Shown here piece after piece: positions 3,184 to 55,592 of a DNA stretch of 64,000 nucleotides. How positions within the stretch are numbered: position 1 is the first letter of the stretch; the number at the start of each line of letters is the position of its first letter. A program made the position numbers and the translations under genes. Origin of the DNA: Escherichia coli (lineage in GTDB: Bacteria; Pseudomonadota; Gammaproteobacteria; Enterobacterales; Enterobacteriaceae); NCBI RefSeq assembly GCF_003790525.1, contig NZ_CP033635.1; one strand, written 5' to 3'. The notes under the pieces are model-generated. The model saw only the letters and a program-made list of their open reading frames with translations. It had not been told where the DNA came from and ran no database searches.

Positions 3184-3849
3184 TTAGTGGTACGTTTTAA
3201 TGATTTCCAGGATGCCGTTAATAATAAACTGCACCCCCATACATACCAGCAGGAATCCCATCAGACGGGAGATCGCTTCAATGCCCCCCTTACCCACCAG
3301 CCGCATAATTGCGCCAGAGCTGCGTAGACTTCCCCACAAAATAACCGCCACCAGGAAAAAGATCAGCGGCGGCGCAACCATCAGTACCCAATCAGCAAAG
3401 GTTGAACTCTGACGCACTGTGGAGGCCGAGCTAATAATCATCGCTATGGTTCCCGGACCCGCGGTACTTGGCATTGCCAGTGGTACAAAAGCAATATTGG
3501 CGCTGGGTTCATCTTCCAGCTCTTTCGACTTGCTTTTCGCTTCCGGTGAATCAATCGCTTTCTGTTGCGGAAAGAGCATCCGAAAACCGATAAACGCGAC
3601 GATTAAGCCGCCTGCAATTCGCAGACCGGGAATCGAAATGCCAAATGTATCCATCACCAGTTGCCCGGCGTAATACGCCACCATCATGATGGCAAATACG
3701 TACACCGAGGCCATCAACGACTGACGATTACGTTCAGCACTGTTCATGTTGCCTGCCAGGCCAAGAAATAACGCGACAGTTGTTAATGGGTTAGCTAACG
3801 GTAGTAACACCACCAGCCCCAGGCCTATTGCTTTAAACAAATCTAACAT
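3184..3849 (-). CDS. marC: MarC-family inner membrane protein
   Basis: 221 aa membrane protein divergent from marRAB. Confidence 0.85.
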
Positions 3850-3961
3850 TGGTGGTTGTTATCCTGTGTATCTGGTTTATCAGCGAAAAGTATAAGGGGT
3901 AAACAACGATAAAGTGTCACTCTTTAGCTAACCTTGCATCGCATTGACCAAAACTTGAACC

Positions 3962-4060: not shown

Positions 4061-4495
4061 GTGAAAAGTACCAGCGATCTGTTCAATGAAATTATTCCAT
4101 TGGGTCGCTTAATCCATATGGTTAATCAGAAGAAAGATCGCCTGCTTAACGAGTATCTGTCTCCGCTGGATATTACCGCGGCACAGTTTAAGGTGCTCTG
4201 CTCTATCCGCTGCGCGGCGTGTATTACTCCGGTTGAACTGAAAAAGGTATTGTCGGTCGACCTGGGGGCGCTGACCCGTATGCTGGATCGCCTGGTCTGT
4301 AAAGGCTGGGTGGAAAGGTTGCCGAACCCGAATGACAAGCGCGGCGTACTGGTAAAACTTACCACCAGCGGCGCGGCAATATGTGAACAATGCCATCAAT
4401 TAGTTGGCCAGGACCTGCATCAAGAATTAACAAAAAACCTGACGGCGGACGAAGTGGCAACACTTGAGCATTTGCTTAAGAAAGTCCTGCCGTAA
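4061..4495 (+). CDS. marR: multiple antibiotic resistance repressor MarR (GTG start)
   Basis: 144 aa wHTH protein; recognised MarR sequence. Confidence 0.93.
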
Positions 4496-4515: not shown

Positions 4516-4899
4516 ATGTCCAGACGCAATACTGACGCTATTACCATTCATAGCATTTTGGACTGGATCGAGGACAACCTGGAATCGCCACTGTCACTGG
4601 AGAAAGTGTCAGAGCGTTCGGGTTACTCCAAATGGCACCTGCAACGGATGTTTAAAAAAGAAACCGGTCATTCATTAGGCCAATACATCCGCAGCCGTAA
4701 GATGACGGAAATCGCGCAAAAGCTGAAGGAAAGTAACGAGCCGATACTCTATCTGGCAGAACGATATGGCTTCGAGTCGCAACAAACTCTGACCCGAACC
4801 TTCAAAAATTACTTTGATGTTCCGCCACATAAATACCGGATGACCAATATGCAGGGCGAATCGCGCTTTTTACATCCATTAAATCATTACAACAGCTAG
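4516..4899 (+). CDS. marA: AraC/XylS-family activator MarA
   Basis: 127 aa from [24 protein letters not shown]; recognised MarA. Confidence 0.93.
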
Positions 4900-4930
4900 T
4901 TGATAACGTGACAACGTCACTGAGGCAATC

Positions 4931-5149
4931 ATGAAACCACTTTTATCCGCAATTGCAGCTGCGCTTATTCTCTTTTCCACGCAGGGCATTGCGGAACAAA
5001 CCACGCAGCCGGTTGTTACTTCCTGTGCCAATGTCGTGGTTGTTCCCCCATCGCAGGAACAACCACCGTTTGATTTAAATCACATGGGTACTGGCAGTGA
5101 TAAGTCGGATGCGCTCGGCGTGCCCTATTATAATCAACACGCTATGTAG
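4931..5149 (+). CDS. marB: MarB periplasmic protein
   Basis: 72 aa with signal peptide, directly after marA. Confidence 0.85.
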   Translation: MKPLLSAIAAALILFSTQGIAEQTTQPVVTSCANVVVVPPSQEQPPFDLNHMGTGSDKSDALGVPYYNQHAM

Positions 5150-44157: not shown

Positions 44158-44322
44158 ATGGCAAAGCCGATCATCACGCTCAATGGCCTAAAAATCGTCA
44201 TTATGTTGGGAATGCTGGTCATTATTCTCTGCGGTATCCGTTTTGCCGCCGAGATCATCGTGCCGTTTATTCTCGCATTATTTATTGCTGTTATATATAA
44301 CTTATTTCGCTTAACTAATTGA
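44158..44322 (+). pseudogene. tqsA: tqsA 5' fragment (first ~45 codons, then foreign tail and stop) cut by the inserted element
   Basis: [45 protein letters not shown] then IYNLFRLTN*; the rest of the gene resumes at 55720. Confidence 0.85.
44286..44294 (+). repeat. left copy of 9-bp junction direct repeat TGCTGTTAT (candidate att core/overlap)
   Basis: identical 9-mer at 55720-55728; flanking bases differ on both sides. Confidence 0.6.
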
Positions 44323-44365: not shown

Positions 44366-44391
44366 AATTAACTACACCATTAACTACACCG
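44366..44391 (+). repeat. left copy of 26-bp direct repeat AATTAACTACACCATTAACTACACCG (tandem 12-mer; candidate integrase arm-type sites)
   Basis: exact copy at 55567-55592; followed in both copies by a related ACAACGTG(G/A)AACAA motif. Confidence 0.6.
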
Positions 44392-45466
44392 TTCGGCGCA
44401 CTGTATGAAACAACGTGGAACAAATAGACACAAGCGGCAGGCTATACCGTTATCATTTTTCAGCTATCCGTCATGAAGCTGGTGGATGATCACGGATAAC
44501 CAGGCATCTACAGCGCCTTAAAAAGCTGAACCCGACAAACATTTCTGCTTATCGGGTCCGATCGCTCTTTCTACTCGTGGCAGATGAGTTTACTAGGAAG
44601 GGGGGAACATTGTATCAGGCTATCCCCTTTCTGTGCTGATTCGGCTGGTGAATGATCTACTTGGGGCACTACACTTTTCGGATAGTGCGGGTATCCGGTT
44701 TTCTGCCTCATCGAATTTTAAGCCTTCTGACGGCCTGTATATCATTTCCTGTGGAGTTGCCGCCCTGATAGCGAATACTGCGGCAGCATGTGATTTACCC
44801 CCCGTTCTGTTGATGTTTGATGTGGCTGGTTGATGTGCTGCCATGTTTTCCGCCAATGGTGGAAAAGCCCACCAGCGCAACGCAGGACGCATAAAACCAT
44901 TGCGATGACTCTGGACGCAAAACCACGTTTAACGATGTTTTGCACTGAACCAGAATACTGTTCGTTTTTGTCTCGATGTCCGTACGTATTACGTCCGCAC
45001 CTAATCCGGCATCATGCCCACCAGCGTAACGCATTTTTTTAATTTCGTGGCTGTGCGTCCACCAGCTACGCCGGAATGGGGTATTCCGTTTCAACGGAAC
45101 AGGTATGACGAACATAATCGCACCTTCTCCCGAAAACGGTGCGACCTGCATCATCGAAATGGTGATTCAGCTACTCGGCGATTTTCACCATTCAGAATCT
45201 GGCGGGTGAGTTATCCAGCTTCCACCAATGGGGGATTCTGGAACAATCAACGGGTTACGCCTTATCAGCAAAAAAGCACATCAACTGTAAAGGAAATCGT
45301 TATGGTTGCTGGTGGGCTGCGTCACCATCATGGTGATGATGCTGTCCAGTCAGCCGGAACGGTTGAACAGGGTGGCTATGGGTCACTCTGTTGTGCGTTA
45401 TTTGCGTGATCCTGGTACGGGGTGACTATCTTTCAGATAGTCGGTTGCCTGGTTACACGAAAAAAT

Positions 45467-45769
45467 TTACTTCCTGCGTTTATCCTGCTTTGTATGCCCG
45501 TGCTGAATGCCCCGCAGTGGATCTTCTTTTTTCAGGTCGATCCCCATGTCCGTTAGTGTTTTTGTGGCGGCGGTTCTTATGGCACAAATCAGGTCTCTTT
45601 CCGGTTCCCGGGTTATGGTTGCCTTCCGGATGCATGCCGTTCGTCGTTCCGTTACATACTGACGCGCTTCATCACTTGCCGCCTGTTTCAGTAACTCACC
45701 CCAGCGATTAGCCGCCCGTCGCCATAAACCTTTCGCTTCCAGTTCTTCCGCTTTGTCATCATGCACCAT
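45467..45769 (-). CDS. ANR-like small regulator, paralog 2 (start at MVHDD.. assumed)
   Basis: MVHDDKAEELEAKGLWRRAANRWGELL... parallels the protein at 49352-49624. Confidence 0.55.
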   Translation of the reverse strand: MVHDDKAEELEAKGLWRRAANRWGELLKQAASDEARQYVTERRTACIRKATITREPERDLICAIRTAATKTLTDMGIDLKKEDPLRGIQHGHTKQDKRRK

Positions 45770-45883
45770 AAGCATAATCCCATTGATACCTGTTAACTCT
45801 GAATGGTTGGTTTCTGTTCTTTTGATAATTTCCCGCATAGCTTATTGTATGACAGTACTGTCCCACAATAAGGAGTTGCACGC

Positions 45884-46174
45884 ATGAGAATGACTAGGCA
45901 CAAAAAACAGATTCTTGAACTCTACAAACCTGAGTATCGCGATTGGGTGCGGGTGGAGGCCGGAGATCCGCCTTTTGATGTTCGTGGTGTGACAGTGCTG
46001 CTCTATGGTTCCGAATATCGGCGATATCACATAGAGGCAACACGAAGGACGCTAAACGCTATGGTTCGTGATAAGTTGCTGGAGCGTGTGAAAGTCCGTG
46101 AGCCACGTTTTGATGTGCGTATTGGTGGCGATGGTGCGCATTGCACGGTAATCCGCTATGGCCTGGTAAGGTAA
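45884..46174 (+). CDS. hypothetical protein (96 aa), divergent from the ANR-like gene
   Basis: ORF with upstream AGGAG-like RBS; no recognisable family. Confidence 0.4.
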   Translation: MRMTRHKKQILELYKPEYRDWVRVEAGDPPFDVRGVTVLLYGSEYRRYHIEATRRTLNAMVRDKLLERVKVREPRFDVRIGGDGAHCTVIRYGLVR

Positions 46175-46276
46175 GCCATCGGGTAAATCAGATGATTAAA
46201 TCACCAGAATGTAAATTTACATTCTGCCAGCCACCAGCTACCCTCCTCAAAATTGAGGACCCTTTTTATCAACTGG

Positions 46277-46558
46277 TTACCGCCGCAACCGTTCCGGCTT
46301 CTTCCACTGATAAGTGTTTTTCGCGCTCTCCTGATACATCGCCACGCGTCGACGGTATGCCAGCAACTCTAGTACTCTGATTCGTATGTCGCGCATATCC
46401 ACGCCGTTAAGCTCAATACCATCACGGCGCATTACATCAGCAACAACACGCACATAATTTTCGGCGGTCACGCTGTCCGGCTGCGTGGCCTGTTCGTCAT
46501 GCTGCTGGCTGATTCCGGTAACGCGGCGGATTAATCCCAGTAGTTCGACTTCTGTCAT
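46277..46558 (-). CDS. hypothetical protein (93 aa) adjacent to cos copy A; start taken at internal Met
   Basis: MTEVELLGLIRRVTGI...; the longer ORF 46277..46756 would read through the cos site and is judged an artefact. Confidence 0.4.
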   Translation of the reverse strand: MTEVELLGLIRRVTGISQQHDEQATQPDSVTAENYVRVVADVMRRDGIELNGVDMRDIRIRVLELLAYRRRVAMYQESAKNTYQWKKPERLRR

Positions 46559-46570
46559 TGTGCCCCCATC

Positions 46571-46648
46571 GCTCTGATAGTCTGGTGTCGTCGGGTCCTT
46601 TCCGGCATGTGGACCCGTTACGGGGCGTCGACCTCGCGCGTTTTCACT
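46571..46648 (+). other. lambda-like cos site copy A (cosQ-cosN-left-arm homology); cosN-like 12-mer GGGCGTCGACCT at 46602-46613
   Basis: GGGTCCTTTCCGG...GTTACG GGGCGTCGACCT CGCGCGTTTTCACTATTTATGAAAATTTTTCGG closely matches the recalled lambda cos junction (lambda cosN GGGCGGCGACCT). Confidence 0.75.
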
Positions 46649-46664
46649 ATTTATGAAAATTTTT

Positions 46665-46775
46665 CGGGATCCATGTCCGGTTTCTCTGCAAGTTAACCAT
46701 ATGAAAAATATAAAAACATGCTTTCCATGAACCGGACATGCGCAAAAAACAGACACTAAAACCGGACATCGAACC
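46665..46775. repeat. three CCGGACAT motifs in alternating orientation next to cos copy A (candidate cosB-like terminase-docking sites)
   Basis: ATGTCCGG near 46671, CCGGACATG near 46729, CCGGACATC near 46763. Confidence 0.45.
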
Positions 46776-46837
46776 AGTTAACCGAAAGTGTGCACAAATC
46801 ACATTCATTGCTGCGAGTGATTAACAAGTTATCGGCT

Positions 46838-47272
46838 TTACTGTTCTGTATCGGCTGATTGCTCCATGCTGGCACGGCGAACGCTTACGGCATGACGCCA
46901 CCCAGCCAGAAAGCCAGCCATTTTATTTCGTGCCTTGCTCACATCTTCCGGTGAATAGCCGTAAATATGCAAACCTTCATCAAATCGATGTTCTGTTTCT
47001 TCACTGGAGTACTCGTCACGCTCAGATGAAAGCAGCCTCGCAAACATAATTTTTTCCAGCGCACTGGTTTCTACGTGATATCCGATGGTCTGAAGATGGC
47101 TTTTACCTGAATACCAAAGCAATGTATGCCCGATGTGATAACCGCCAGACTTTCCGCGATCCGCATTAAGATACGGCATCCCCTGTTTGGTCCATGCGCG
47201 AATAGTGGTTCTGTTAACCTTGAAATGTTCAGCTATTTCCTGCTGACTTACAAAACAAGCTTTATCAATCAT
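46838..47272 (-). CDS. Nu1-like small terminase-type DNA-binding protein (wHTH N-terminus, divergent C-terminus); possibly a packaging-redirection factor
   Basis: VSQQEIAEHFKVNRTTIRAWTKQGMPYL aligns with lambda Nu1 VNKKQLADIFGASIRTIQNWQEQGMPVL; 144 aa versus 181 aa for Nu1. Confidence 0.65.
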   Translation of the reverse strand: MIDKACFVSQQEIAEHFKVNRTTIRAWTKQGMPYLNADRGKSGGYHIGHTLLWYSGKSHLQTIGYHVETSALEKIMFARLLSSERDEYSSEETEHRFDEGLHIYGYSPEDVSKARNKMAGFLAGWRHAVSVRRASMEQSADTEQ

Positions 47273-47334
47273 AATGTTACCTTAACTGCATGGTTAAATA
47301 TCAATCAAGTGGTGGTGGTGTCACCTTCACGGAA

Positions 47335-47405
47335 AAACGTCATAAATAGCGAAAACGTGCGAGGTCGACGCCCCGTAACGGGTCCACATGCCGGAAAGGA
47401 CCCGC
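47335..47405 (-). other. lambda-like cos site copy B, inverted relative to copy A; cosN-like 12-mer (reverse complement) at 47362-47373
   Basis: reverse complement reads GGGTCCTTTCCGGCATGTGGACCCGTTACG GGGCGTCGACCT CGCACGTTTTCGCTATTTATGA; lies about 70 bp upstream of the terS-like start in the lambda cosN-to-Nu1 orientation. Confidence 0.7.
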
Positions 47406-47428
47406 AAAAAAAGCCGGATTTCTCCGGC
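47406..47428 (-). terminator. intrinsic terminator after the capsid/decoration genes
   Basis: minus strand GCCGGAGAAATCCGGC followed by U7. Confidence 0.65.
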
Positions 47429-47502
47429 CTTGTCTCAGATGGTTTTCAGTATGCGATAGATGTCGCCGTCATCGCCCTGGTTTGTGCCATCGTTCCCCCT
47501 GC

Positions 47503-47838
47503 TTATCGGGCCAGCGGCTGAACGGATACGCCGGAACCCGCAAAGGCGGCGCATTTTTTCGCATCGGTGTCGACGCTCTCAGGCCAGTTAACGGCGGCAA
47601 TATTGAATATCCCCGTCTTGTAACACTGTGCTGATTTCTGCTTTGACGTGTCCACAGGGTACGAGGTCAGATAAACAGCCTTGCCAGATTCCTTACCATC
47701 CCACGCCTTAAACTCGCCATTGTCTGCCAGCATCAGCGGGGTAAATTCCTGAATAACGCCAGCATCAGCGGCAAAATGTACCAGCGTCGTGGATACCTGT
47801 TGGCTGCCTGAAAATAACTCAATGTATGGAGCGTCCAT
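47503..47838 (-). CDS. lambda gpD-like head decoration protein
   Basis: TPLMLADNGEFKAWDG and AFAGSGVSV match lambda gpD TPLMLDTSSRKLVAWDG and AFAGTAISIV; 111 aa. Confidence 0.8.
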   Translation of the reverse strand: MDAPYIELFSGSQQVSTTLVHFAADAGVIQEFTPLMLADNGEFKAWDGKESGKAVYLTSYPVDTSKQKSAQCYKTGIFNIAAVNWPESVDTDAKKCAAFAGSGVSVQPLAR

Positions 47839-47849
47839 AGAATCCCCCG

Positions 47850-48905
47850 TTAAGCAATTTTGACGGTAACAAATTTGCGAATATCTGCCGGTACAGGCTG
47901 CGGTGCGCTGTGCGTCTGCACGTACTCAATCGCCGGATCGCCGTCCTCAATCCAGTTTTTCGGGTAGTACATGTTTTGCGTTGCGCCCGTTCTTACCGCT
48001 TCCTGATCCATAATCGCACCATATGCCACCAGCCCTTTATTGTTGGTGTTACCCAGGACCAGCAAATCAGGCTCAAGGAAATATTTTTCGGTCCCGTCGC
48101 TGTCAGTGTATTTGCCGGAATAGACGATAAGGGCCAGATCACCAAGATAGCCTTTAAAGCTCACCACTTCGCCCAGGTTTTTACAGGCCAGCTCGGCGGC
48201 GGATTCTGATCCACGGGAAAGATCGTACAGTTCACGGAATTTTTTAAAGCTGCGTAATGTGCGCCATACCTCACCGCCCATAATCATGACGTTGGCGGGG
48301 CAACCTGCCTGATCAGCATAAAGCTCGATGTCATAGATTGGGTCGTGCATGTCTTTATCCTGCTGGGACCATTTTTTACCACTGGCCTGCTGTATGATGC
48401 AGTTTTCCGGTATTTTCCAGTCGATTTCATAGCGTTCTATGCCTTCGCCCTCAATGATGTTTTTTCCGGTCGTTACCGCATTCACCGCCAGCCATTCCAC
48501 GCGCGCCTTAATGGCGTTTATCTGGCGGCGCATGTTGCCAGTAATCAGGCGCATACGGCGGTAAGTTGGATCGTTAAGCTGTGCCGGATCTTCTCCATCC
48601 ATGCGCATGATGGTCTTTGTTGGATCGATTTCGTGCTTTGGCTTCATGTAGCCTGGTTTAATCGTGCTGGTTTCGTACCCTTTATCGCGCTGGACCTGAC
48701 TACCCACCATAGGAGAACAGAACGCTGACATCGTAACCTCTTCAATGTCCAGGGTGTCCAGCATGATGTTTTGGGTGTTGAAGGTCGCCACGTTCGGGAA
48801 AAACAGCGTGGTAAACAGCGGACTAAATTTATATTCCGAAATATCCCCGCGATTCAGGTACGCGAAAAGCTGGTTAGTTGTAAGTGCCTTTGCTTTGCCT
48901 GTCAT
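47850..48905 (-). CDS. lambda gpE-like major capsid protein
   Basis: 351 aa; KPGYMKPKHEIDPTKT, DPTYRRMRLITGNMRR and YPKNWIEDGDPA...SAP...FVTVKIA align with lambda gpE along the whole length. Confidence 0.85.
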   Translation of the reverse strand: MTGKAKALTTNQLFAYLNRGDISEYKFSPLFTTLFFPNVATFNTQNIMLDTLDIEEVTMSAFCSPMVGSQVQRDKGYETSTIKPGYMKPKHEIDPTKTIMRMDGEDPAQLNDPTYRRMRLITGNMRRQINAIKARVEWLAVNAVTTGKNIIEGEGIERYEIDWKIPENCIIQQASGKKWSQQDKDMHDPIYDIELYADQAGCPANVMIMGGEVWRTLRSFKKFRELYDLSRGSESAAELACKNLGEVVSFKGYLGDLALIVYSGKYTDSDGTEKYFLEPDLLVLGNTNNKGLVAYGAIMDQEAVRTGATQNMYYPKNWIEDGDPAIEYVQTHSAPQPVPADIRKFVTVKIA

Positions 48906-49111
48906 TATTCACCTCCGTGAACCTGATTGATACCCAGCGCCGCACGCAAATAGGTGCGCACCTGCCAGCCTGTTGACGGCTCAACCATCGCCAGCGGATC
49001 AAGTCCTGCCGCAATGCCTGCTTTTACATTCTGCTGGTGGCGTTCCTTGAGCGCCTCCACGATGTCGGGGCTTATGTAGACCGTCACCCCGCCTTTTTTC
49101 TCTTCTGCCAT
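48905..49111 (-). CDS. hypothetical 68-aa protein translationally coupled (TAATG) to the capsid gene
   Basis: stop overlaps the gpE-like ATG; first gene of the capsid operon. Confidence 0.5.
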   Translation of the reverse strand: MAEEKKGGVTVYISPDIVEALKERHQQNVKAGIAAGLDPLAMVEPSTGWQVRTYLRAALGINQVHGGE

Positions 49112-49145
49112 AGTCAGAAATTCCTCTTTGACTTAAAAAATCATA

Positions 49146-49163
49146 ACTGGATGTTCATCCAGT
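49146..49163. promoter_or_regulatory. perfect palindrome ACTGGATG-TT-CATCCAGT upstream of the capsid operon (candidate operator/activator site)
   Basis: 8-bp arms with 2-bp spacer, about 35 bp upstream of the first operon ATG (49111). Confidence 0.4.
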
Positions 49164-49322
49164 CCTGATTATAATCATGATTGCATTTTGCGCAACAATA
49201 TTGAGTTACGTTGCAAATTATGAAATGATTATCCCGATCATGTGTGTCAGTTCACCATAAAAAACCTCGTATACAAAAGCCCCATAAGCCCCCTGTGACC
49301 TTATCGGGCTTTTTTTAGGCGT

Positions 49323-49344
49323 AAAAAAGCCGGATTGCTCCGGC
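49323..49344 (-). terminator. intrinsic terminator after the ANR-like gene (same stem family as 47406-47428)
   Basis: minus strand GCCGGAGCAATCCGGC followed by U6. Confidence 0.6.
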
Positions 49345-49351
49345 TGTGTGC

Positions 49352-49624
49352 TCACTTCTGCGGGTAGTTGCGCCATATTGCTTTGCCAATACCAGCTATC
49401 CCCATTTGTTTTTCAGTGCGATTAACTGACCTTTTCAGAGCGCCTAAATCATCCGGCGGCTCCGGTGGCCTCTGTGCCTTACGGATACATTCCGCGCGAC
49501 GCATTGCCACCTGTTCGCGCTCCTTGTCTGTCTCCACCAGCCTCATAACTTCACCCCATCGCGCCGCCGCCCTCCGGTAAAAGCCTTTTGCCTCGAGTTC
49601 CTCCGCTATGCGGTCATGTACCAT
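49352..49624 (-). CDS. ANR-like small regulator, paralog 1 (start at MVHDR.. assumed)
   Basis: MVHDRIAEELEAKGFYRRAAARWGEVM...; longer ORF start would overlap ssb. Confidence 0.55.
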   Translation of the reverse strand: MVHDRIAEELEAKGFYRRAAARWGEVMRLVETDKEREQVAMRRAECIRKAQRPPEPPDDLGALKRSVNRTEKQMGIAGIGKAIWRNYPQK

Positions 49625-49634
49625 CGTCACCCCC

Positions 49635-50045
49635 TCAGAACGGAATATCATCACCGTAAGGGTCATCGCCTCCCGCTGGTGGCTGATTACCCTGTGTGCC
49701 TGTGGTTTTGCGTCTGTTCCCGCCAGGACGTGCCGCACGGGCACTGATTACGCTGTCTGCAATAACCTGCCAGCCCTGCCGCGTTTCCCCGTTCTGTCCG
49801 GTCCACTGGCTGACCTGCATCGTGCCGGATACGCTGGCAACGTCGCCTTTTTGATGTTTAGCCAGAAAGTCGGCCTGTTTGCCAAATGCGATGACCGATA
49901 ACCATAACGTCGCCTGTCCGTCCTGTGCCTGGCCGCATGGTAAAGATACCGCCATACGCGCCAGCGTCATCGGTGTACCCTTACTGGTCTGTTTTACCTG
50001 CGGGTCGTCCACCAGCCGCCCGTAAGCTGCTATCTGTGCTGTCAT
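49635..50045 (-). CDS. single-stranded DNA-binding protein (SSB-like OB fold with acidic DDIPF tail)
   Basis: 136 aa; C-terminal ...DPYGDDIPF typical of SSB; Gly/Pro-rich linker. Confidence 0.75.
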   Translation of the reverse strand: MTAQIAAYGRLVDDPQVKQTSKGTPMTLARMAVSLPCGQAQDGQATLWLSVIAFGKQADFLAKHQKGDVASVSGTMQVSQWTGQNGETRQGWQVIADSVISARAARPGGNRRKTTGTQGNQPPAGGDDPYGDDIPF

Positions 50046-50284
50046 GCTGTCTGCTCTCCGGTTTTAACGTTGATGGTTGTTACCTGTTCTGCTTCGGCAA
50101 TATCCCGCTCTGTCAGCGTGGCAAAGTTTGCCGCCGTCGTTGTCATGAATGCGCTTATCAGTTCGGGATGTGCTTTCGCGTATCCTTCCCCTGTGTTGCG
50201 GTCGATGATTTTTATCGCCACCCTCAGCCAGTGCTCTGTAAGGTCAATGGCGCGGTGATCTGTCTTTTTGTGGCTTACCTTCAT
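50042..50284 (-). CDS. hypothetical protein (80 aa)
   Basis: ORF overlapping the ssb start (coupled); no recognisable family. Confidence 0.45.
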   Translation of the reverse strand: MKVSHKKTDHRAIDLTEHWLRVAIKIIDRNTGEGYAKAHPELISAFMTTTAANFATLTERDIAEAEQVTTINVKTGEQTA

Positions 50285-50287
50285 GAT

Positions 50288-50611
50288 TTACTCCAGAGTA
50301 CCGCTATTGCTGCTGTCGTTAACCGGATACCAGGCAAATACCATCGATTCACCACAGTGAACAAACTTCTTATCCGGCAGATAAAGGCACTCGCACATTC
50401 CCTCATCAGGACTATGCGGACTCATGCCCAGCTCACTGGTCAGCACGGGTAAGATTTCGCGGCAGGTGTTCCCCGCACCGAAATAATCAACCTCACAAAG
50501 CGCCCATGCAGCAATCGGGCTGTACCATTCCGTGCCGTCGTCGTCTTTGAACTTAGCCCACCAGCCAGGAAGGGCAGTTGATATGCTCAGTGTTTCAATT
50601 TCAGTGTTCAT
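50288..50611 (-). CDS. hypothetical protein (about 107 aa; start uncertain)
   Basis: ORF 50288..50656 with internal Met; Cys-rich, no recognisable family. Confidence 0.45.
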   Translation of the reverse strand: MNTEIETLSISTALPGWWAKFKDDDGTEWYSPIAAWALCEVDYFGAGNTCREILPVLTSELGMSPHSPDEGMCECLYLPDKKFVHCGESMVFAWYPVNDSSNSGTLE

Positions 50612-50659
50612 AAATTTACCTTCGGTATTTTGTCCTGCTGTTCGATTTTTATTCATTGC

Positions 50660-50870
50660 TCACCATCTCTCACTTTTACTACTCACTTTTTAAAGCGTCT
50701 CGCTTCGTCTCACTTGAGATTTTTGTGTTTTGTATGTGCATGTTTCATAAGTGTTTTTTCACTGCTCACTTTTGAGCATGTATACAGGTGAGAAAGTGAG
50801 TAATTGTGTTAATATTTTGTAAAAACCTCACCATTACTCACTTTTACTACTCACTTTTTACAGTGGTCCT
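50660..50870. repeat. iteron array (CTCACTT heptamers, two 24-bp direct repeats) - candidate replication origin of the element
   Basis: at least 6 direct and 2 inverted CTCACTT copies between 50669 and 50856; CTCACTTTTACTACTCACTTTTTA at 50669 and 50839; directly 3' of the primase-helicase gene. Confidence 0.6.
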
Positions 50871-52264
50871 ACATCATCACCATCAATGTAAATCACGGCG
50901 TCTTTTTCCAGTTTGGCTAACCATCGCCGCATATTTTTCACGTCATACCCAAGCCGTTTCATGTCATCACGTAACAGCGGGATCGTGCACTTGTCGCCGT
51001 TCTGTGTGCGTGAACGGATGCACCCCCATAGCGCGGTATGGTTTTCCGTCTTGTTGCCTGCCTCCTCGATGCGCTCCAGTTCAGCAGGGGCGCGGGGAAC
51101 GTCAATCACCACCATGGACACAATTTCTTCGCCATCTGTATCGGTGAACACCTCCACGCTTTTAAGGTCGTATGCACTCTCTTTTGGCTCCTCTGCGTCC
51201 TTCATCTTCGTACACGCCGCAACCAGTGCTGTAACGTCTGAATTTTCCCTGCTGATTCGGTACTCTGCATCAAGCGCGGCACGGAATGCACTGGAACCAC
51301 GCGCCCCCTTTGTTTCATCCTTGCCGGAATGGTGAACCACCAGCACCGTGGCCCCTGTGGCCTGCTTTATCGCGTCACACCCCTGGATAAATGCGCCCAT
51401 ATCACGGGAATCATTTTCATCATTCCCACCAAAGCAACGGGCCAGCGTGTCGATCACAATCAGCCGCACATTTTCGCCCGTTCTGCTCTTAACAAGTCCG
51501 GCAGTCCTGATAACCTGCTCCACATAGTCAGGCGATGCAGGGAAAACAGGCGCGTTAATGATGCACAAATCTGTAACCACCTTGTCGTGGGTTATCTCCC
51601 ACGCCTTAACGCGGCGTTTTACGCCCATGCTGCCTTCACCAGCGATATAGATAACCGCACCCTTACTTACCCTGCGGCCTCCCCATGCCATACCTGTGGC
51701 AACATGGCACGACCAGGAAATGGCGAGGAACGATTTATAAGAACCGCTGGCCCCGTAGGTGCTGCATAATGACTCAGCCGGAATAAGCCCCTTAATGACG
51801 TAGCTTTGCTGCGCATCGAATCCCTCAGAACCCCATGAGATGGGAAGTGTGATTTTTCGCTTTCCGCCATTCATGACCAGGCTTTCCCCTCTCTCCCATG
51901 TTTCCCGTAGTCGTGGTAGCTGGTCGCTCCAGTCCTCCAGCAGTTCGAAATTTTCAGAAAGTAGCCGCGCCTCCTGGACTCCGGCGATCGCCAGTTTTGT
52001 GGCAATGGTCAGCATCTGCATATCGTCCAGGTTTCCGGCGCGTATGACCTTTACCCTGTATCGTCCTTCATCAACAATCTGTAAGTTGTCCAGTTCGCTT
52101 AACTGATAACGGCCCAGATAAACCGGAGGGATGGGATCGCCTGCTTTTTTGGCCTGTGCAATCATGTAATGTTCTGCAAAGGAGTGAGCATTATCACCCG
52201 CAAAAATAACCGCCTCAGTGTGTTTATCTTTCGGTAACAGTTTTACGTTCGGTGCAAGTTTCAT
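50858..52264 (-). CDS. replication initiator: primase-associated N-domain + RecA-like/AAA helicase (pri-rep type)
   Basis: 468 aa; Walker A GASGSYKS, Walker B LIVIDTL, VLVVHHSGKD; C-terminal wH-like tail. Confidence 0.8.
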   Translation of the reverse strand: MKLAPNVKLLPKDKHTEAVIFAGDNAHSFAEHYMIAQAKKAGDPIPPVYLGRYQLSELDNLQIVDEGRYRVKVIRAGNLDDMQMLTIATKLAIAGVQEARLLSENFELLEDWSDQLPRLRETWERGESLVMNGGKRKITLPISWGSEGFDAQQSYVIKGLIPAESLCSTYGASGSYKSFLAISWSCHVATGMAWGGRRVSKGAVIYIAGEGSMGVKRRVKAWEITHDKVVTDLCIINAPVFPASPDYVEQVIRTAGLVKSRTGENVRLIVIDTLARCFGGNDENDSRDMGAFIQGCDAIKQATGATVLVVHHSGKDETKGARGSSAFRAALDAEYRISRENSDVTALVAACTKMKDAEEPKESAYDLKSVEVFTDTDGEEIVSMVVIDVPRAPAELERIEEAGNKTENHTALWGCIRSRTQNGDKCTIPLLRDDMKRLGYDVKNMRRWLAKLEKDAVIYIDGDDVGPL

Positions 52265-52548
52265 TTCTTACCCCCTGCGACCAGCATTTCACGGATTTTG
52301 CGGATATAACTTGCAGCACGTTTCTGATTAACGGCTTTACGATGGCCCACCAGCGTGAAATCACGCCGGAACTGATAAACAGGCATAACGCAGTCATATT
52401 CGTAGCCTTCACGGCGGTAAGTGATGCGACGTTCCTCCACGCCCTTAATCATTACCGTGCCGCCGTAGTTATCACGGAAAATATCGCCGGGACGGATTTC
52501 AGGACGAGCGGGGCCGCTGGCATTAACGCCAGAATTTTTATTTTTCAT
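52261..52548 (-). CDS. hypothetical protein (95 aa) translationally coupled to the replication gene
   Basis: stop overlaps the downstream start; basic protein. Confidence 0.45.
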   Translation of the reverse strand: MKNKNSGVNASGPARPEIRPGDIFRDNYGGTVMIKGVEERRITYRREGYEYDCVMPVYQFRRDFTLVGHRKAVNQKRAASYIRKIREMLVAGGKK

Positions 52549-52553
52549 GTTTT

Positions 52554-52781
52554 TTATTCTCCGGTGTGCTGTTCTTTATATCTGTCGTGAATTGCCATCA
52601 CTGTATTTAATTCATTAATAACAGCCGTTAATAGCGTACGCACGGCAGAAAACATCATTGAATCAGATTCATCGCCACTTTCCTGCACATCAATTAAATT
52701 AAGTAGTAATGCGTCCATTTCCTTTGCGCGGATTAATGCCTTTTCACAATGAAAAATAACACCAAAGGGTATTTTATTCAT
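52554..52781 (-). CDS. hypothetical protein (about 75 aa)
   Basis: ORF with internal Met start; first gene after the divergent operator region. Confidence 0.4.
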   Translation of the reverse strand: MNKIPFGVIFHCEKALIRAKEMDALLLNLIDVQESGDESDSMMFSAVRTLLTAVINELNTVMAIHDRYKEQHTGE

Positions 52782-53056
52782 GACTCCCCTCCTGACGGAT
52801 ACGGGCGGCGAATACAGCGACACAACCGGACGGGCAACGGTTACGCGCTTCGCGTTCCGTCCAGGCGGTCACGTGGATAATTTGAGATTCTCCGGCACTC
52901 AGTGCCAGAAAACGCCACACAAAGGCGGTTTGTGTGTGCGCTAGTCGTGGGGTATGCTGTGTTCCAGCCATAATCGTTACTCCTGTTAACGGTTTGGTTA
53001 GACGCCCTGCATGTGTTACAGCACTGCGGGGCGTTGTCTTTTTAACGGCTTTCGTG

Positions 53057-53104
53057 ATAGGGTGTACACCTATCAAGCAAAAACATAACGCTATAGGTGT
53101 ACAC
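53057..53104. promoter_or_regulatory. two TAGG(G)TGTACAC palindromic operator-like sites immediately upstream of the RHH gene
   Basis: ATAGGGTGTACACCTAT at 53057-53073 and ATAGGTGTACAC at 53093-53104, ending at the ATG. Confidence 0.6.
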
Positions 53105-53299
53105 ATGTCAACAGTTATTAAGCGAGATAAAAAACCAAAGGGAACAGGAAAAGCCCCCCCATTCCATATGCGAATAGCTCCAGAACTGAAAGAGCAGTTT
53201 GATAATGAGGCCAGCAATGATGGGGTAAGCCTAGCCAACTGGCTTAAAGAGTTGGGGCGCGCCGAACTAAAGCGACGCGGCATTGAACCTAAAGGCTGA
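53105..53299 (+). CDS. ribbon-helix-helix (CopG/Arc-like) DNA-binding protein, 64 aa
   Basis: beta-strand/helix pattern PFHMRIAPELKEQF...SLANWLKELGRAEL typical of RHH regulators/antitoxins. Confidence 0.6.
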   Translation: MSTVIKRDKKPKGTGKAPPFHMRIAPELKEQFDNEASNDGVSLANWLKELGRAELKRRGIEPKG

Positions 53300-53302
53300 T
53301 GT

Positions 53303-53428
53303 ATGACTGAAAAGCAGACCGATAACAAACTTTCTCTACCAGAGAATAAACCAGCAGGCTTCTTACCAAGAAAAATCCTTGATGAGATCAAACGCCGCCA
53401 GCGCCGCAAGGCCAAAGAGCAGGAATAG
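53303..53428 (+). CDS. small basic ORF (41 aa) immediately downstream of the RHH gene
   Basis: ATG 4 nt after the RHH stop; product MTEKQTDNKLSLPENKPAGFLPRKILDEIKRRQRRKAKEQE. Confidence 0.3.
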   Translation: MTEKQTDNKLSLPENKPAGFLPRKILDEIKRRQRRKAKEQE

Positions 53429-53752
53429 CCCACCAGCAAGCCAGCACACTGATCACATTGGCCACCGTGACAGGTGGCCTTTTCTTTGCCCGTTATCCGG
53501 CAATTGTGGCGCTTCGCCACACGGTTGATATAATTCCCCTGCTCAGATTCATTTTTTGCGCGGCAGGTAAATTGTTCAGAAAGGCGGCTCCTTATCGGGG
53601 CCGCTTTTTTTATGTCTGAAAAACCGCGATTTTGTTGTTTTTCAGTTTCACCAGGCCGAACGAAGCCCCGCCCATGTTCGGGCGTATATCCAGTCTTCAT
53701 GGTTAAATCTCTGTATTAGTGGATGGGTGGCGGCTGTGTGCCGCCAGTCTTT

Positions 53753-53941
53753 TTAGTGAACTGCCTCGCAGCTTTCCTTCCATGCCAGAACTTCGGATAA
53801 AGACCAGCCAACGGAACGACCGCCCAGCTTACGCCGTGATGGGAATTGTCCGGCCTTTTCCAGGCGGTAGCGGCATGAGCGGCTAAGGCCTGTTAGCTTT
53901 TCGCATTCTTTTTCACGTATAAAGCGATCAGTGCTTAACAC
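53753..53941 (-). CDS. alpA: AlpA/Vis-family phage regulatory protein (excisionase-like)
   Basis: 62 aa; ...IREKECEKLTGLSRSCRYRLEKAGQFPSRRKLGGRSVGW... typical AlpA fold signature. Confidence 0.8.
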   Translation of the reverse strand: MLSTDRFIREKECEKLTGLSRSCRYRLEKAGQFPSRRKLGGRSVGWSLSEVLAWKESCEAVH

Positions 53942-54315
53942 TATTGCCCCCTTTCGTTTCTTAAAGAGTTATTTCGTGTTCTATTGCGTTGGGATGTGTC
54001 TGATTGTGTCAGGGTGATTCAGAGTTGGCAAATGTTGGTGGCGGGTATTTTACAGAAACGGGGTGATTTTAATAAAAATCATTTTAATTCAGTATTATGC
54101 AAAGGCATAAAATCTCGTTTTATGCCTTTTTTCTCACTATTTAAAGCGTTATTCGCTAATGTATAAAAAACCAGTTGAGCATTAAAAATCAGCAACTTAT
54201 AAATCTGTATACTTTTTGACCTCTTGTTCGTGGTTGTTTCACGTTGTTGTGTATTGTTGCACGTTGTATCTGTGCACTTATCCAGTATGCGCATACTGAA
54301 AAAACACGAAAAAAA

Positions 54316-55566
54316 TTATTTTCTTCTGGCTACTGGTAGCGTGGTTACGTTTTCATGTGCTCCCGCCAGTATCTCCAACCGCTCCACCCACATATCCAGC
54401 GCATTGCGTTTCGCATCCAGATAACGGGAATGATTATAAACTCGCTGCATTCCTGGCATCTGGTGGCCTGTAAGCTGCTCCACGACGTGAGGATCCACGC
54501 CTAAATCGTTCAGCATCGTTGTAAAGGTGCGCCGGATGTCATGCAGTGACCATTGAGGGTGTTTTAGCCTCCTGTGCGCTAATCTGCCGTACTGCGATAC
54601 GCTGGCCTCCTGTTTCACTTCCCCCAGTAATAAGCCCGTGTGCCTGTTCTGCTCCACCAGCCGCGTGACGAACGGCAGGATCGCTTCCGGTATGGGCCGG
54701 AATATTGCGACCTTCGTTTTGCTGTGCTCCTTCGGAACGGTCCAGAGCATTTCCGTGAAATCCCACTCCCCGATCTCCGATAACCTCAGTTCTACCGTCC
54801 TGGCTCCGAAGACAATCAGGAGGCGGATTAGTGCGACGTAGTAAGGGGAAAATATTTTTTTGTCCAGTGCCTGCAATAATTCGCCCAGTTCTTTGGTGCT
54901 TAAGACACGTTCGCTTATATCCGGTTTTTTCCCAACGTCCGCCACGTTCAGATCGTCCAGAACGTTGCTGATTGCATAGCGCCGCCTCCGGCAAAACTTA
55001 AGCGCCTGTTTGCACGCCTGTAGCACGAATCCGGCAGTAACAGGCGTTCGCTTTGCCACCCGATCAAAACAGGCCAGCCAGTGCCGTAGCTCGCATTTAT
55101 CCAGCGGCATAGCACCAATGTGCTGTATTACGTGATTATTAAGTCGCCTTTTCAGGGCGATATAATCCACGCGGTTTTCCTTTACGTAAGACTCAAGCCA
55201 GTAGGTGAGCGCATCTCCAACCGTTACAGGCTTTAACGCTTCCTGCATGGTGTAATTCATCTCATGACGTGGATTTTTCCCCTCAGCCAGCCATGCGCGA
55301 CACTGGGCGGCTTTTTCCCTGGCTGATTTCAGGCTCAGATCAGGATAATTTCCCAGCTTAATACGTTCCGGTCGTGTCTCTCTTCCCGTTCCGGCCCTGT
55401 AAGTGAAATACCAGGTTAAAAGGCCGCTGGTTGAATGCCTGACGCTCAGATTTCCACCGTCATTAAGAAAGGCTGTTTTTTGGGCGGGTGTGCCGTTGAT
55501 TTTCCTTAGCTGTGTATCGCTCAGCTTGTTAAGTGCTCTGGTCATAATTTTGAATCCGGTCATCAC
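54316..55566 (-). CDS. int: tyrosine site-specific integrase (P4-type)
   Basis: 416 aa; C-terminal catalytic region with ...HDIRRTF... and ...LTGHQMPGMQRVYNH... (R..H..R..Y). Confidence 0.88.
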   Translation of the reverse strand: MMTGFKIMTRALNKLSDTQLRKINGTPAQKTAFLNDGGNLSVRHSTSGLLTWYFTYRAGTGRETRPERIKLGNYPDLSLKSAREKAAQCRAWLAEGKNPRHEMNYTMQEALKPVTVGDALTYWLESYVKENRVDYIALKRRLNNHVIQHIGAMPLDKCELRHWLACFDRVAKRTPVTAGFVLQACKQALKFCRRRRYAISNVLDDLNVADVGKKPDISERVLSTKELGELLQALDKKIFSPYYVALIRLLIVFGARTVELRLSEIGEWDFTEMLWTVPKEHSKTKVAIFRPIPEAILPFVTRLVEQNRHTGLLLGEVKQEASVSQYGRLAHRRLKHPQWSLHDIRRTFTTMLNDLGVDPHVVEQLTGHQMPGMQRVYNHSRYLDAKRNALDMWVERLEILAGAHENVTTLPVARRK

Positions 55567-55592
55567 AATTAACTACACCATTAACTACACCG
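55567..55592 (+). repeat. right copy of the 26-bp direct repeat AATTAACTACACCATTAACTACACCG
   Basis: exact copy of 44366-44391, directly upstream of the int start codon. Confidence 0.6.

Follow-up and report, generated by a model that had tools for sequence, protein, structure and literature searches.

The array of AAGTGAG heptamers that begins directly after rep, analysed here within a 64-kb window (the whole stretch of Escherichia coli DNA under study), is very probably the Rep-specific replication origin of an 11-kb EcCIO42/EcCICFT073-type PICI. A rep-dependent satellite origin had been suggested in the initial annotation of this DNA, and we found that reading to be supported, its position, form and context all matching the published PICI origin type. 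In that type the origin is the region immediately 3' of the initiator gene, and two iteron sets flank an AT-rich region (Fillol-Salom et al., 2018; PMC6092414). The rep-ori of EcCICFT073 keeps a thermosensitive plasmid at the restrictive temperature, with colony formation abolished by deletion of rep and significantly reduced by deletion of ori (Fillol-Salom et al., 2018). Because the element tested in that work, EcCICFT073, has a different Rep allele and unrelated iterons, function is assigned here by analogy of position and form. The array is what would be expected as the origin of an already described satellite type, and the allele is closely related to those of published islands. A search of the later literature on Gram-negative PICI origins yielded no account more specific than that of 2018, and neither the iteron sequence nor the terms 'helicase/RepA' were found in the supplements of that paper.

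Architecture of the heptamer array

The 201-bp gap between rep and the next gene (50657-50857) contains seven exact copies of CTCACTT, six on the plus strand (starting at 50669, 50682, 50709, 50765, 50837 and 50850) and one on the minus strand (50794-50800), as compared to five in the remaining 63.8 kb of the window. At the rate of the rest of the window 0.016 copies would be expected in 201 bp (Poisson P ~5e-17), and no other 200-bp stretch of the window is as rich in repeats of a 7-mer, with six copies here versus two in most stretches of this size. The six direct copies claimed initially were therefore confirmed as exact, whereas of the two inverted copies claimed only that at 50794-50800 is exact, the other (AGGTGAG, 50786-50792) carrying one mismatch. 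Together with three degenerate direct heptamers (CTCACCA at 50659 and 50827, CTCGCTT at 50699) this gives 11 iteron-like sites, seven exact and four degenerate. The pair of 24-bp direct repeats previously placed about 170 bp apart is exact (50669-50692 and 50837-50860) with a spacing of 168 bp, and is nested in a 37-nt repeat of 92% identity. No second AAGTGAG/CTCACTT cluster was identified in the 64-kb window.

The array lies at lower coordinates than rep and yet is truly 3' of it because rep is on the minus strand; its first iteron is found one base past the rep TAA, in agreement with the original placement directly after the replication gene. It is also AT-rich as described, with a GC fraction of 0.32-0.37 versus 0.50-0.61 in the flanks (about 55%). 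The duplex-stability prediction that had been proposed as a check points the same way: the 40-bp duplex of lowest stability in the 4-kb neighbourhood (49-53 kb) is 50810-50849, inside the array and among the top 1.1% of the window by nearest-neighbour free energy.

Read in the sense of rep, the origin can be divided into five blocks (Table 1). The rep-proximal triad has the pattern AAGTGAG-N6-AAGTGAG-N3-TGGTGAG, with spacings of 13 and 10 bp, and the last three iterons of the rep-distal array are a second copy of it 168 bp away, a distance that would correspond to about 16 helical turns. The triad and the five-copy distal array bracket 110 bp made up of the two AT-rich spacers and the dyad core, in which a perfect palindrome, TGTATACA, occupies 50779-50786 between the inverted iterons and the direct AAGTGAG. 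Spacer 2 is a candidate unwinding region. Spacer 1 is the weaker candidate because it is GC-richer, not AT-rich, in the O157/EcCIO42 allele, and the melting site is thus ambiguous.

Table 1. Coordinates of the candidate origin, of rep and of associated features of the island (window positions).
Feature	Coordinates	Strand	Description
Candidate origin	50659..50860	-	11 heptamers (AAGTGAG in rep sense) from the rep stop codon to the next gene; architecture common to 50+ related loci
Rep-proximal triad	50827..50856	-	AAGTGAG 50850-56, AAGTGAG 50837-43, TGGTGAG 50827-33
AT-rich spacer 1 (26 bp)	50801..50826	.	Within the least stable duplex of 49-53 kb (nearest-neighbour free energy)
Dyad core	50765..50800	.	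Inverted iterons 50794-50800 (exact) and 50786-50792 (degenerate), palindrome, direct iteron 50765-50771
A/T-rich spacer 2 (49 bp)	50716..50764	.	A-rich in rep sense; good conservation across E. coli alleles
Rep-distal array	50659..50715	-	AAGTGAG 50709-15, AAGCGAG 50699-705, AAGTGAG 50682-88, AAGTGAG 50669-75, TGGTGAG 50659-65
rep (468 aa)	50858..52264	-	ORF; TAA stop at 50858-50860
Rep domains			N-terminal domain 1-135, no family assignment; RepA/AAA_25 RecA-type helicase ~146-390; C-terminal winged-helix-like domain ~405-468
Coding region of Rep C-terminal domain (residues 392-468)	50861..51091	-	Predicted helix-helix-helix-strand-strand
Codon of Asn444	50933-50935		In predicted recognition helix 442-454 (VKNMRRWLAKLEK)
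DUF4222 gene	52261..52548	-	Overlaps rep start by 4 nt
First gene 3' of origin, hypothetical	50288..50656	-	Longest ORF from 50656, 122 aa; RefSeq start 50611, 107 aa
SSB gene, replication module	49635..50045	-	PHROG 44, E 4e-41; RefSeq annotation
Tyrosine integrase	54316..55566	-	PHROG 1, E 2e-73; RefSeq length 1230 nt
Left 26-bp direct repeat (AATTAACTACACCATTAACTACACCG)	44366..44391	+	Bounds island inside tqsA
Right 26-bp direct repeat	55567..55592	+	Bounds island inside tqsA

Rep, its relatives and predicted iteron recognition

The product of rep is named 'helicase RepA family protein' in RefSeq, and AAA_25 (residues 146-317, E 6e-42) is the only Pfam family found in it. Among solved structures the sole sequence match is the hexameric helicase RepA of RSF1010 (1g8y; hmmsearch with a profile of 35 homologues, E 4e-12), which is also the best Foldseek superposition of the AlphaFold (AF2) model of Rep (pLDDT 84.6; TM 0.71). 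The whole model matched RecA-fold ATPases only, with no hit on the N-terminal domain, for which NCBIfam likewise returned nothing above cut-off. Rep had been labelled a primase-helicase; AAA_25 and the RSF1010 RepA match bear out the helicase part, whereas Pfam, NCBIfam and PDB searches detected no primase domain in Rep. The N-terminal module of the EcCICFT073 protein, 47% identical to that of the window's Rep, also lies outside the D5_N/helicase domains of that protein, which leaves the primase label possible but unsupported here. Relatives in other genera differ in their N-termini, from forms of ~680-700 aa that are probably primase-bearing to forms of ~350 aa almost without an extension, and the compound label is apt for some members of the family.

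The C-terminal domain of Rep is predicted to be a winged-helix DNA-binding domain, three helices and a hairpin making up the last 60 residues of the protein. Modelled separately, it matches winged-helix DNA-binding domains only (CzrA, MepR, an ORC winged helix on DNA, Fur and BlaI), with weak Foldseek E values of 0.07-0.3 and probabilities of up to 0.98.

A scan of one genome per species recovered 73 loci with genes related to rep in the helicase and C-terminal domain, and arrays were compared in 69 further loci, drawn from Enterobacterales and one Oceanospirillaceae MAG. On average, 3.4 copies of the AAGTG core per locus lie in the 300 bp past the stop codon versus 0.5 per 300 bp elsewhere in the same loci, and at least five copies of some 9-mer were found within 320 bp after rep in 50 of the 69 loci as compared to one of 118 control segments. 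Copy positions are nearly fixed across loci (approximately 0+, 12+, (22+), 55-, 83+, 141+, 168+ and 180+), with the first iteron at an offset of 0-2 from the rep stop and an equivalent of the proximal triad at offsets of ~0, 12 and 22. After the stop codon, the recurring layout opens with three direct iterons and a spacer, continues with an inverted and then a direct iteron on either side of a TATATA core, and closes, beyond an A/T-rich spacer, with three to five direct iterons. A TATATA-type core separates the inverted from the next direct iteron in 50 of 52 related arrays and is virtually absent elsewhere in these loci. About a quarter of the related loci have no clear array after rep, indicating either that the layout rule is not universal or that those elements have decayed. 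A circular Klebsiella record of 16,971 bp (int, rep, capsid, adaptor and terminase) displays the same origin layout and is suggestive, though no proof, of autonomous replication for this type of origin.

The tail of the iteron varies by lineage, changing in concert at every copy. It reads AAGTGAG in E. coli and the Oceanospirillaceae MAG, AAGTGAGGA in Xenorhabdus, AAGTGGGGGA in Serratia, Morganella, Pectobacterium, Erwinia and others, AAGTGCGGCA in Kosakonia, Enterobacter, Phytobacter and Klebsiella (including the circular record), and AAGTGCGC in Hafnia. Three E. coli alleles have AAGTGGG at all 10 of 10 AAGTGAG positions of the window, the inverted copy included. Binding sites that co-evolve with one protein would be expected to show just this behaviour, a change of all copies together on a fixed scaffold.

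An alignment of the C-terminal domains indicates that residue 444 sorts with the base after AAGTG, iteron base 6. This residue is the third of the predicted recognition helix, three before the invariant Arg447-Trp448. Asn at this position goes with A, Lys or His with G, and Ser or Gly with C, preferences that agree with what is generally known of protein-DNA recognition. Of the 49 loci with clear arrays 48 conform to this association, a count that is partly confounded and inflated by shared descent; the one locus that departs from it (L053) looks like an artefact of motif calling. Two observations weigh against shared descent as the whole explanation, namely that Asn with A recurs in three distant lineages and that the switch within E. 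coli is independent. Our forecast that E. coli alleles with AAGTGGG iterons would be without Asn444 held in three of three cases, all having His, in C-terminal domains 74-88% identical to that of the window. These sequence patterns suggest, indirectly, that the AAGTGAG iterons may be the sites recognised by the cognate Rep.

The island and competing interpretations

The array belongs to an 11.2-kb island (about 44366-55592), which is a Gram-negative PICI inserted in tqsA, with fragments of that gene flanking it on both sides. Its genes, nearly all on one strand, encode an integrase, helix-turn-helix/AlpA-type and Icd-like proteins, DUF4222, Rep, two small proteins, SSB, PerC, a lambda-type major capsid protein and a decoration protein. 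Such a set of genes is typical of Gram-negative PICIs, elements of about 10-15 kb with an att site of their own, an integrase, an AlpA-type regulator and unidirectional genes, but with neither tail nor lysis genes. NCBIfam gave nothing above cut-off for ten small ORFs of the island, and the AlpA-type assignment is based on RefSeq annotation of near-identical islands. DUF4222 precedes rep in five E. coli PICI-type islands, those for which the full annotation was read.

About 12% of complete E. coli genomes contain similar DNA. Strain GF4 has identical DNA in an island at the phoQ-roxA site, the published island EcCIO42 of E. coli 042 occupies tqsA and is allelic to that of the window, and in O157:H7 a further allele (O-island 51 type) lies between phoQ and roxA. 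Islands of the EcCIO42/O157 type share with the window the gene order, the AAGTGAG positions and the TGTATACA core. Their Rep is likewise of the RepA family and is 63% identical to the window's overall, with 87% identity in the C-terminal domain, 69% in the helicase core and 42% in a variant N-terminal domain. The window's allele differs further in the first downstream gene and in spacer 1, AT-rich here and GC-rich there.

The main residual doubt concerns the activity of the window's copy and not its identity. PICI-type islands are usually annotated as defective prophages (Fillol-Salom et al., 2018), and some related loci have decayed arrays, as would be the case if the island were defective and the array an origin-like relic that no longer fires. 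We consider this improbable given that Rep is full length with every family-invariant residue kept, the two iteron triads are nearly identical, and the integrase and both att repeats are intact. Moreover, the rep-ori module is found in identical form at two attachment sites, in different strains, which points to recent spread.

By sequence comparison, the array is linked to rep and not to the gene downstream of it, across both cargo and attachment sites. Other islands with the same rep-ori have different genes in place of the hypothetical gene at 50288-50656, and in strains ST130 and MS6198 the module is followed by another small gene and by a protease-capsid fusion module. In many E. coli genomes similarity to the window covers 50659 and upward (the array and the 3' end of rep, 94-97% identity) and ends exactly at the last iteron. 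This behaviour bears on a second interpretation, in which the heptamers would be operator or activator sites, together with a promoter, for the downstream operon and would be bound by PerC or AlpA rather than Rep. The array does lie directly upstream of the next gene, its last copy abuts a possible start codon, and plasmid iterons often double as regulatory sites. However, an operator role is highly improbable: replacement of the downstream gene leaves the array next to rep, and the array sequence co-varies with the C-terminal domain of Rep. Scans of 50400-51100 for sigma-70-like promoters and intrinsic terminators found neither consensus, so a plain promoter/terminator reading is unsupported, and Gram-negative PICIs are described as transcribed unidirectionally from upstream (Fillol-Salom et al., 2018). 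No Rfam family matched 50300-51200 at E up to 1.

A packaging (cos/pac) or partition site, read by a terminase small subunit or a partition protein, can be given next to no weight even though terminase- and ParB-binding sites are also arrays of short repeats and the island carries capsid genes, because two cosN-like sequences (GGGCGTCGACCT, one mismatch to the lambda cosN core) were located at 46623 and 47362, inside the island but 3.3-4 kb from the array, as with the two functional cos sites of EcCICFT073, while no ParA/ParB gene is present in the island annotation and the array accompanies rep across islands with quite different morphogenesis modules.

Relation to known origins and a proposed initiation mechanism

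Taken as a Rep-specific origin, the array can be set beside several known systems. EcCICFT073 has the same succession of DUF4222, rep, an iteron-rich gap, a hypothetical gene, SSB, PerC, capsid and decoration genes. Its 288-bp gap after rep, however, contains about a dozen TCTACC/GGTAGA repeats in both orientations that are unrelated to AAGTGAG, and its 584-aa Pri-Rep has only the first 126 aa in common with the window's Rep (47% identity), the remainder consisting of D5_N, a DUF5906 SF3-type helicase and a Pox_D5 C-terminus instead of RepA/AAA_25. The two origins are analogous in place and form, but not homologous, and since their iterons are unrelated the shared N-terminal domain cannot be the iteron reader.

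SaPI origins have 6-12 penta- or hexanucleotide iterons right after rep with an AT-rich centre and some iterons facing each other, and the SaPI Rep is a self-loading helicase whose C-terminal winged helix recognises the iterons (Qiao et al., 2022; PMC9371898). The window's origin resembles these in its location just downstream of rep and in the arrangement of its iterons, which form two sets on either side of an AT-rich centre with some copies opposed, the inverted copies at 50786-50800 facing the direct copy at 50765-50771 as stated for SaPIs. It differs in the conserved TATATA core between a head-to-head iteron pair. SaPI Reps are AAA+/SF3-like with 3'-5' polarity, whereas the window's Rep has a RecA-type RepA fold, and no sequence homology was seen between the two proteins. 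With AAA_25 as its only Pfam family and a RecA-type fold nearest to RSF1010 RepA, the window's Rep was not assigned to the SaPI/SF3 helicase family.

The IncQ plasmid RSF1010 encodes the RepA helicase, the RepB' primase and the iteron-binding initiator RepC, and has an oriV with ~20-bp iterons and dedicated ssi sites. Its oriV likewise combines direct iterons with an AT-rich region. The two systems are alike in their RepA helicase, but iteron binding resides in a separate RepC in RSF1010 and would reside in a C-terminal domain fused to the helicase in the window's Rep, and the iterons of the window measure 7-10 bp as compared to ~20 bp. No separate RepC or RepB' gene is present in the annotated island, and an IncQ replicon was rejected on these grounds in spite of the shared helicase type.

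The alpha protein of satellite P4 combines a primase and an SF3 helicase with a C-terminal domain that recognises short repeated octamers, and it needs a distant second cluster, crr. It is similar to the window's Rep in being a satellite-encoded multidomain helicase, and its origin binding via a C-terminal domain parallels that proposed for Rep; alpha with ori/crr has been cited as an analogue (Fillol-Salom et al., 2018). In the window's Rep neither a primase nor an SF3 domain was found, and the 64 kb hold a single heptamer cluster, so the alpha/ori-crr type was set aside. Classical iteron plasmids of the Rep_3 (WH1-WH2) type, such as pPS10, F and RK2, have iterons of 17-22 bp, DnaA boxes and a dimeric initiator that is not a helicase. 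This type was rejected as well, the window having heptamer iterons, a helicase as candidate initiator and no perfect DnaA box. Within 50600-50900 there are one-mismatch DnaA boxes only (in AT-rich DNA), no IHF consensus and no GATC, giving no sign of DnaA- or Dam-dependent control.

Based on these comparisons, a mechanism of initiation can be proposed. Upon induction by a helper phage and excision, the island would express Rep, envisaged as a RepA-type (RecA-fold, SF4-like) hexameric helicase with its own C-terminal winged-helix module for origin recognition. The C-terminal domain would bind the AAGTGAG iterons, with Asn444, at the start of the recognition helix, reading the base after AAGTG. 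The two triads and the central head-to-head pair may place Rep on either side of the TGTATACA core and the adjoining A/T-rich spacer. The duplex could then open at the core or at the adjoining A-rich spacer, and Rep would load itself without a separate loader. The SSB of the island would coat the strands, and host functions would prime and elongate, host priming being presumed because no primase domain is detectable in Rep. The repeats with their position, conservation and co-variation with Rep are observed; Rep binding, the melting site, self-loading and the source of the primer are features that we infer.

More broadly, we tentatively suggest that the array could represent a widespread and deeply conserved family of origins served by a self-initiating RepA-type (SF4-like) helicase, independent of and parallel to the SF3-type SaPI Reps. 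Such origins would have an invariant centre, two head-to-head iterons enclosing a TATATA melting core, with phased direct triads on its flanks, and their specificity would be largely re-programmed by residue 444. The dyad core, the scaffold shared across genera, the RepA-type instead of SF3-type helicase and the residue-444 rule were not found in the literature searched and are modest additions, none of which overturns current understanding.

The main yield is the recognition that the replication module in the window is intact and belongs to a known class of phage satellites, which carry PerC-family virulence regulators between E. coli strains. In practical terms, the analysis provides precise coordinates for the origin, a conserved dyad core as the place at which melting should be sought, and a simple, testable residue-to-base rule that could aid the classification of PICI replicons, the prediction of compatibility between co-resident satellites and the design of orthogonal mini-replicons. 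If reprogramming by one residue is true, related satellites could evolve orthogonal replicons by a single protein change accompanied by a concerted change of their iterons.

Rep N-terminal module and a shared origin spacer element

The N-terminal domain of the window's Rep (residues 1-135) is a shuffled module. It shares 47% identity with the Pri-Rep N-terminus of EcCICFT073, a Gram-negative PICI, and 47-59% identity with the N-termini of DUF927, DUF5906 and P4-family primase proteins of Klebsiella and Arsenophonus plasmids, in which this Rep-type module is joined to unrelated helicase cores. A search with the domain returned neither a family nor a function. An element of ~20 nt, CTGAAA(C/G)CC.CG(T/C)CA(T/C)TACTGG, occurs in several origins, where it lies in the spacer that separates the central iteron from the distal array. 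The origins that carry it differ in their iterons and include that of EcCICFT073, whose Rep is unrelated; the element, which may serve in priming or as a host-factor site, is absent from the window's origin.

Origins of related elements

Klebsiella pneumoniae 'plasmid' pKp_Goe_795-4 (CP018459.1; circular, 16,971 bp) gave no result in plasmid replicon typing. It encodes an integrase, a DNA-binding protein, a Rep of the window's family, a capsid, a head-tail adaptor and small and large terminases, and appears to be a capsid-forming PICI that was assembled as a free circle. The first array of Xenorhabdus beddingii, with AAGTGAGGA iterons, is directly followed by another origin-like unit, which has AAGTGGGGA iterons and a TATATA dyad of its own; judged from sequence, these would be two tandem origins differing in specificity.

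Boundaries and accessory features of the window's island

The island is bounded by a 26-bp direct repeat, AATTAACTACACCATTAACTACACCG, internally a tandem 12-mer, and separates tqsA into a short 5' fragment and a 3' part, the same integration site as that of EcCIO42. Two cosN-like sequences in mutually inverted orientation lie one on each side of a 144-aa HTH gene, a pair reminiscent of the two reported functional cos sites of EcCICFT073. Upstream of the early (Icd-like) genes is a perfect 12-bp inverted repeat, GTGTACACCTAT / ATAGGTGTACAC, with a gap of 19 nt and four copies of GTGTACA in the region. This repeat, which has the appearance of an operator, overlaps a short ORF on the opposite strand; in a near-identical island that ORF is a HicB-type antitoxin. 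The island also carries two PerC-family regulator genes, assigned from the RefSeq annotation of a near-identical island. For some strains, activation of the LEE pathogenicity island by PICI-encoded PerC homologues has been reported.

Positions of the features in the window and in compared loci
Feature	Locus	Position	Strand	Remark
~20-nt element	L018, L026, L042, L043, L044, L061	98-122		offsets after rep
~20-nt element	EcCICFT073 (L076)	~4176-4200
~20-nt element	pKp_Goe_795-4 (L081)	~4960-4985
ori	pKp_Goe_795-4 (L081)	4867-5080		L081 coordinates
Second origin-like unit	X. beddingii (L003)	~3745-3850		225-320 past rep stop
Rep N-terminal domain	window	51860-52264
Pri-Rep N-terminus	EcCICFT073 (L076)	2242-2620
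26-bp repeat	window	44366-44391; 55567-55592
tqsA 5' fragment	window	~44158-44322
tqsA 3' part	window	from 55742
cosN-like GGGCGTCGACCT	window	46623-46634	+	1 mismatch to lambda cosN core
cosN-like GGGCGTCGACCT	window	47362-47373	-	1 mismatch to lambda cosN core
HTH gene	window	46838-47272
PerC-family genes	window	45467-45838; 49352-49624
Inverted repeat	window	53061-53111
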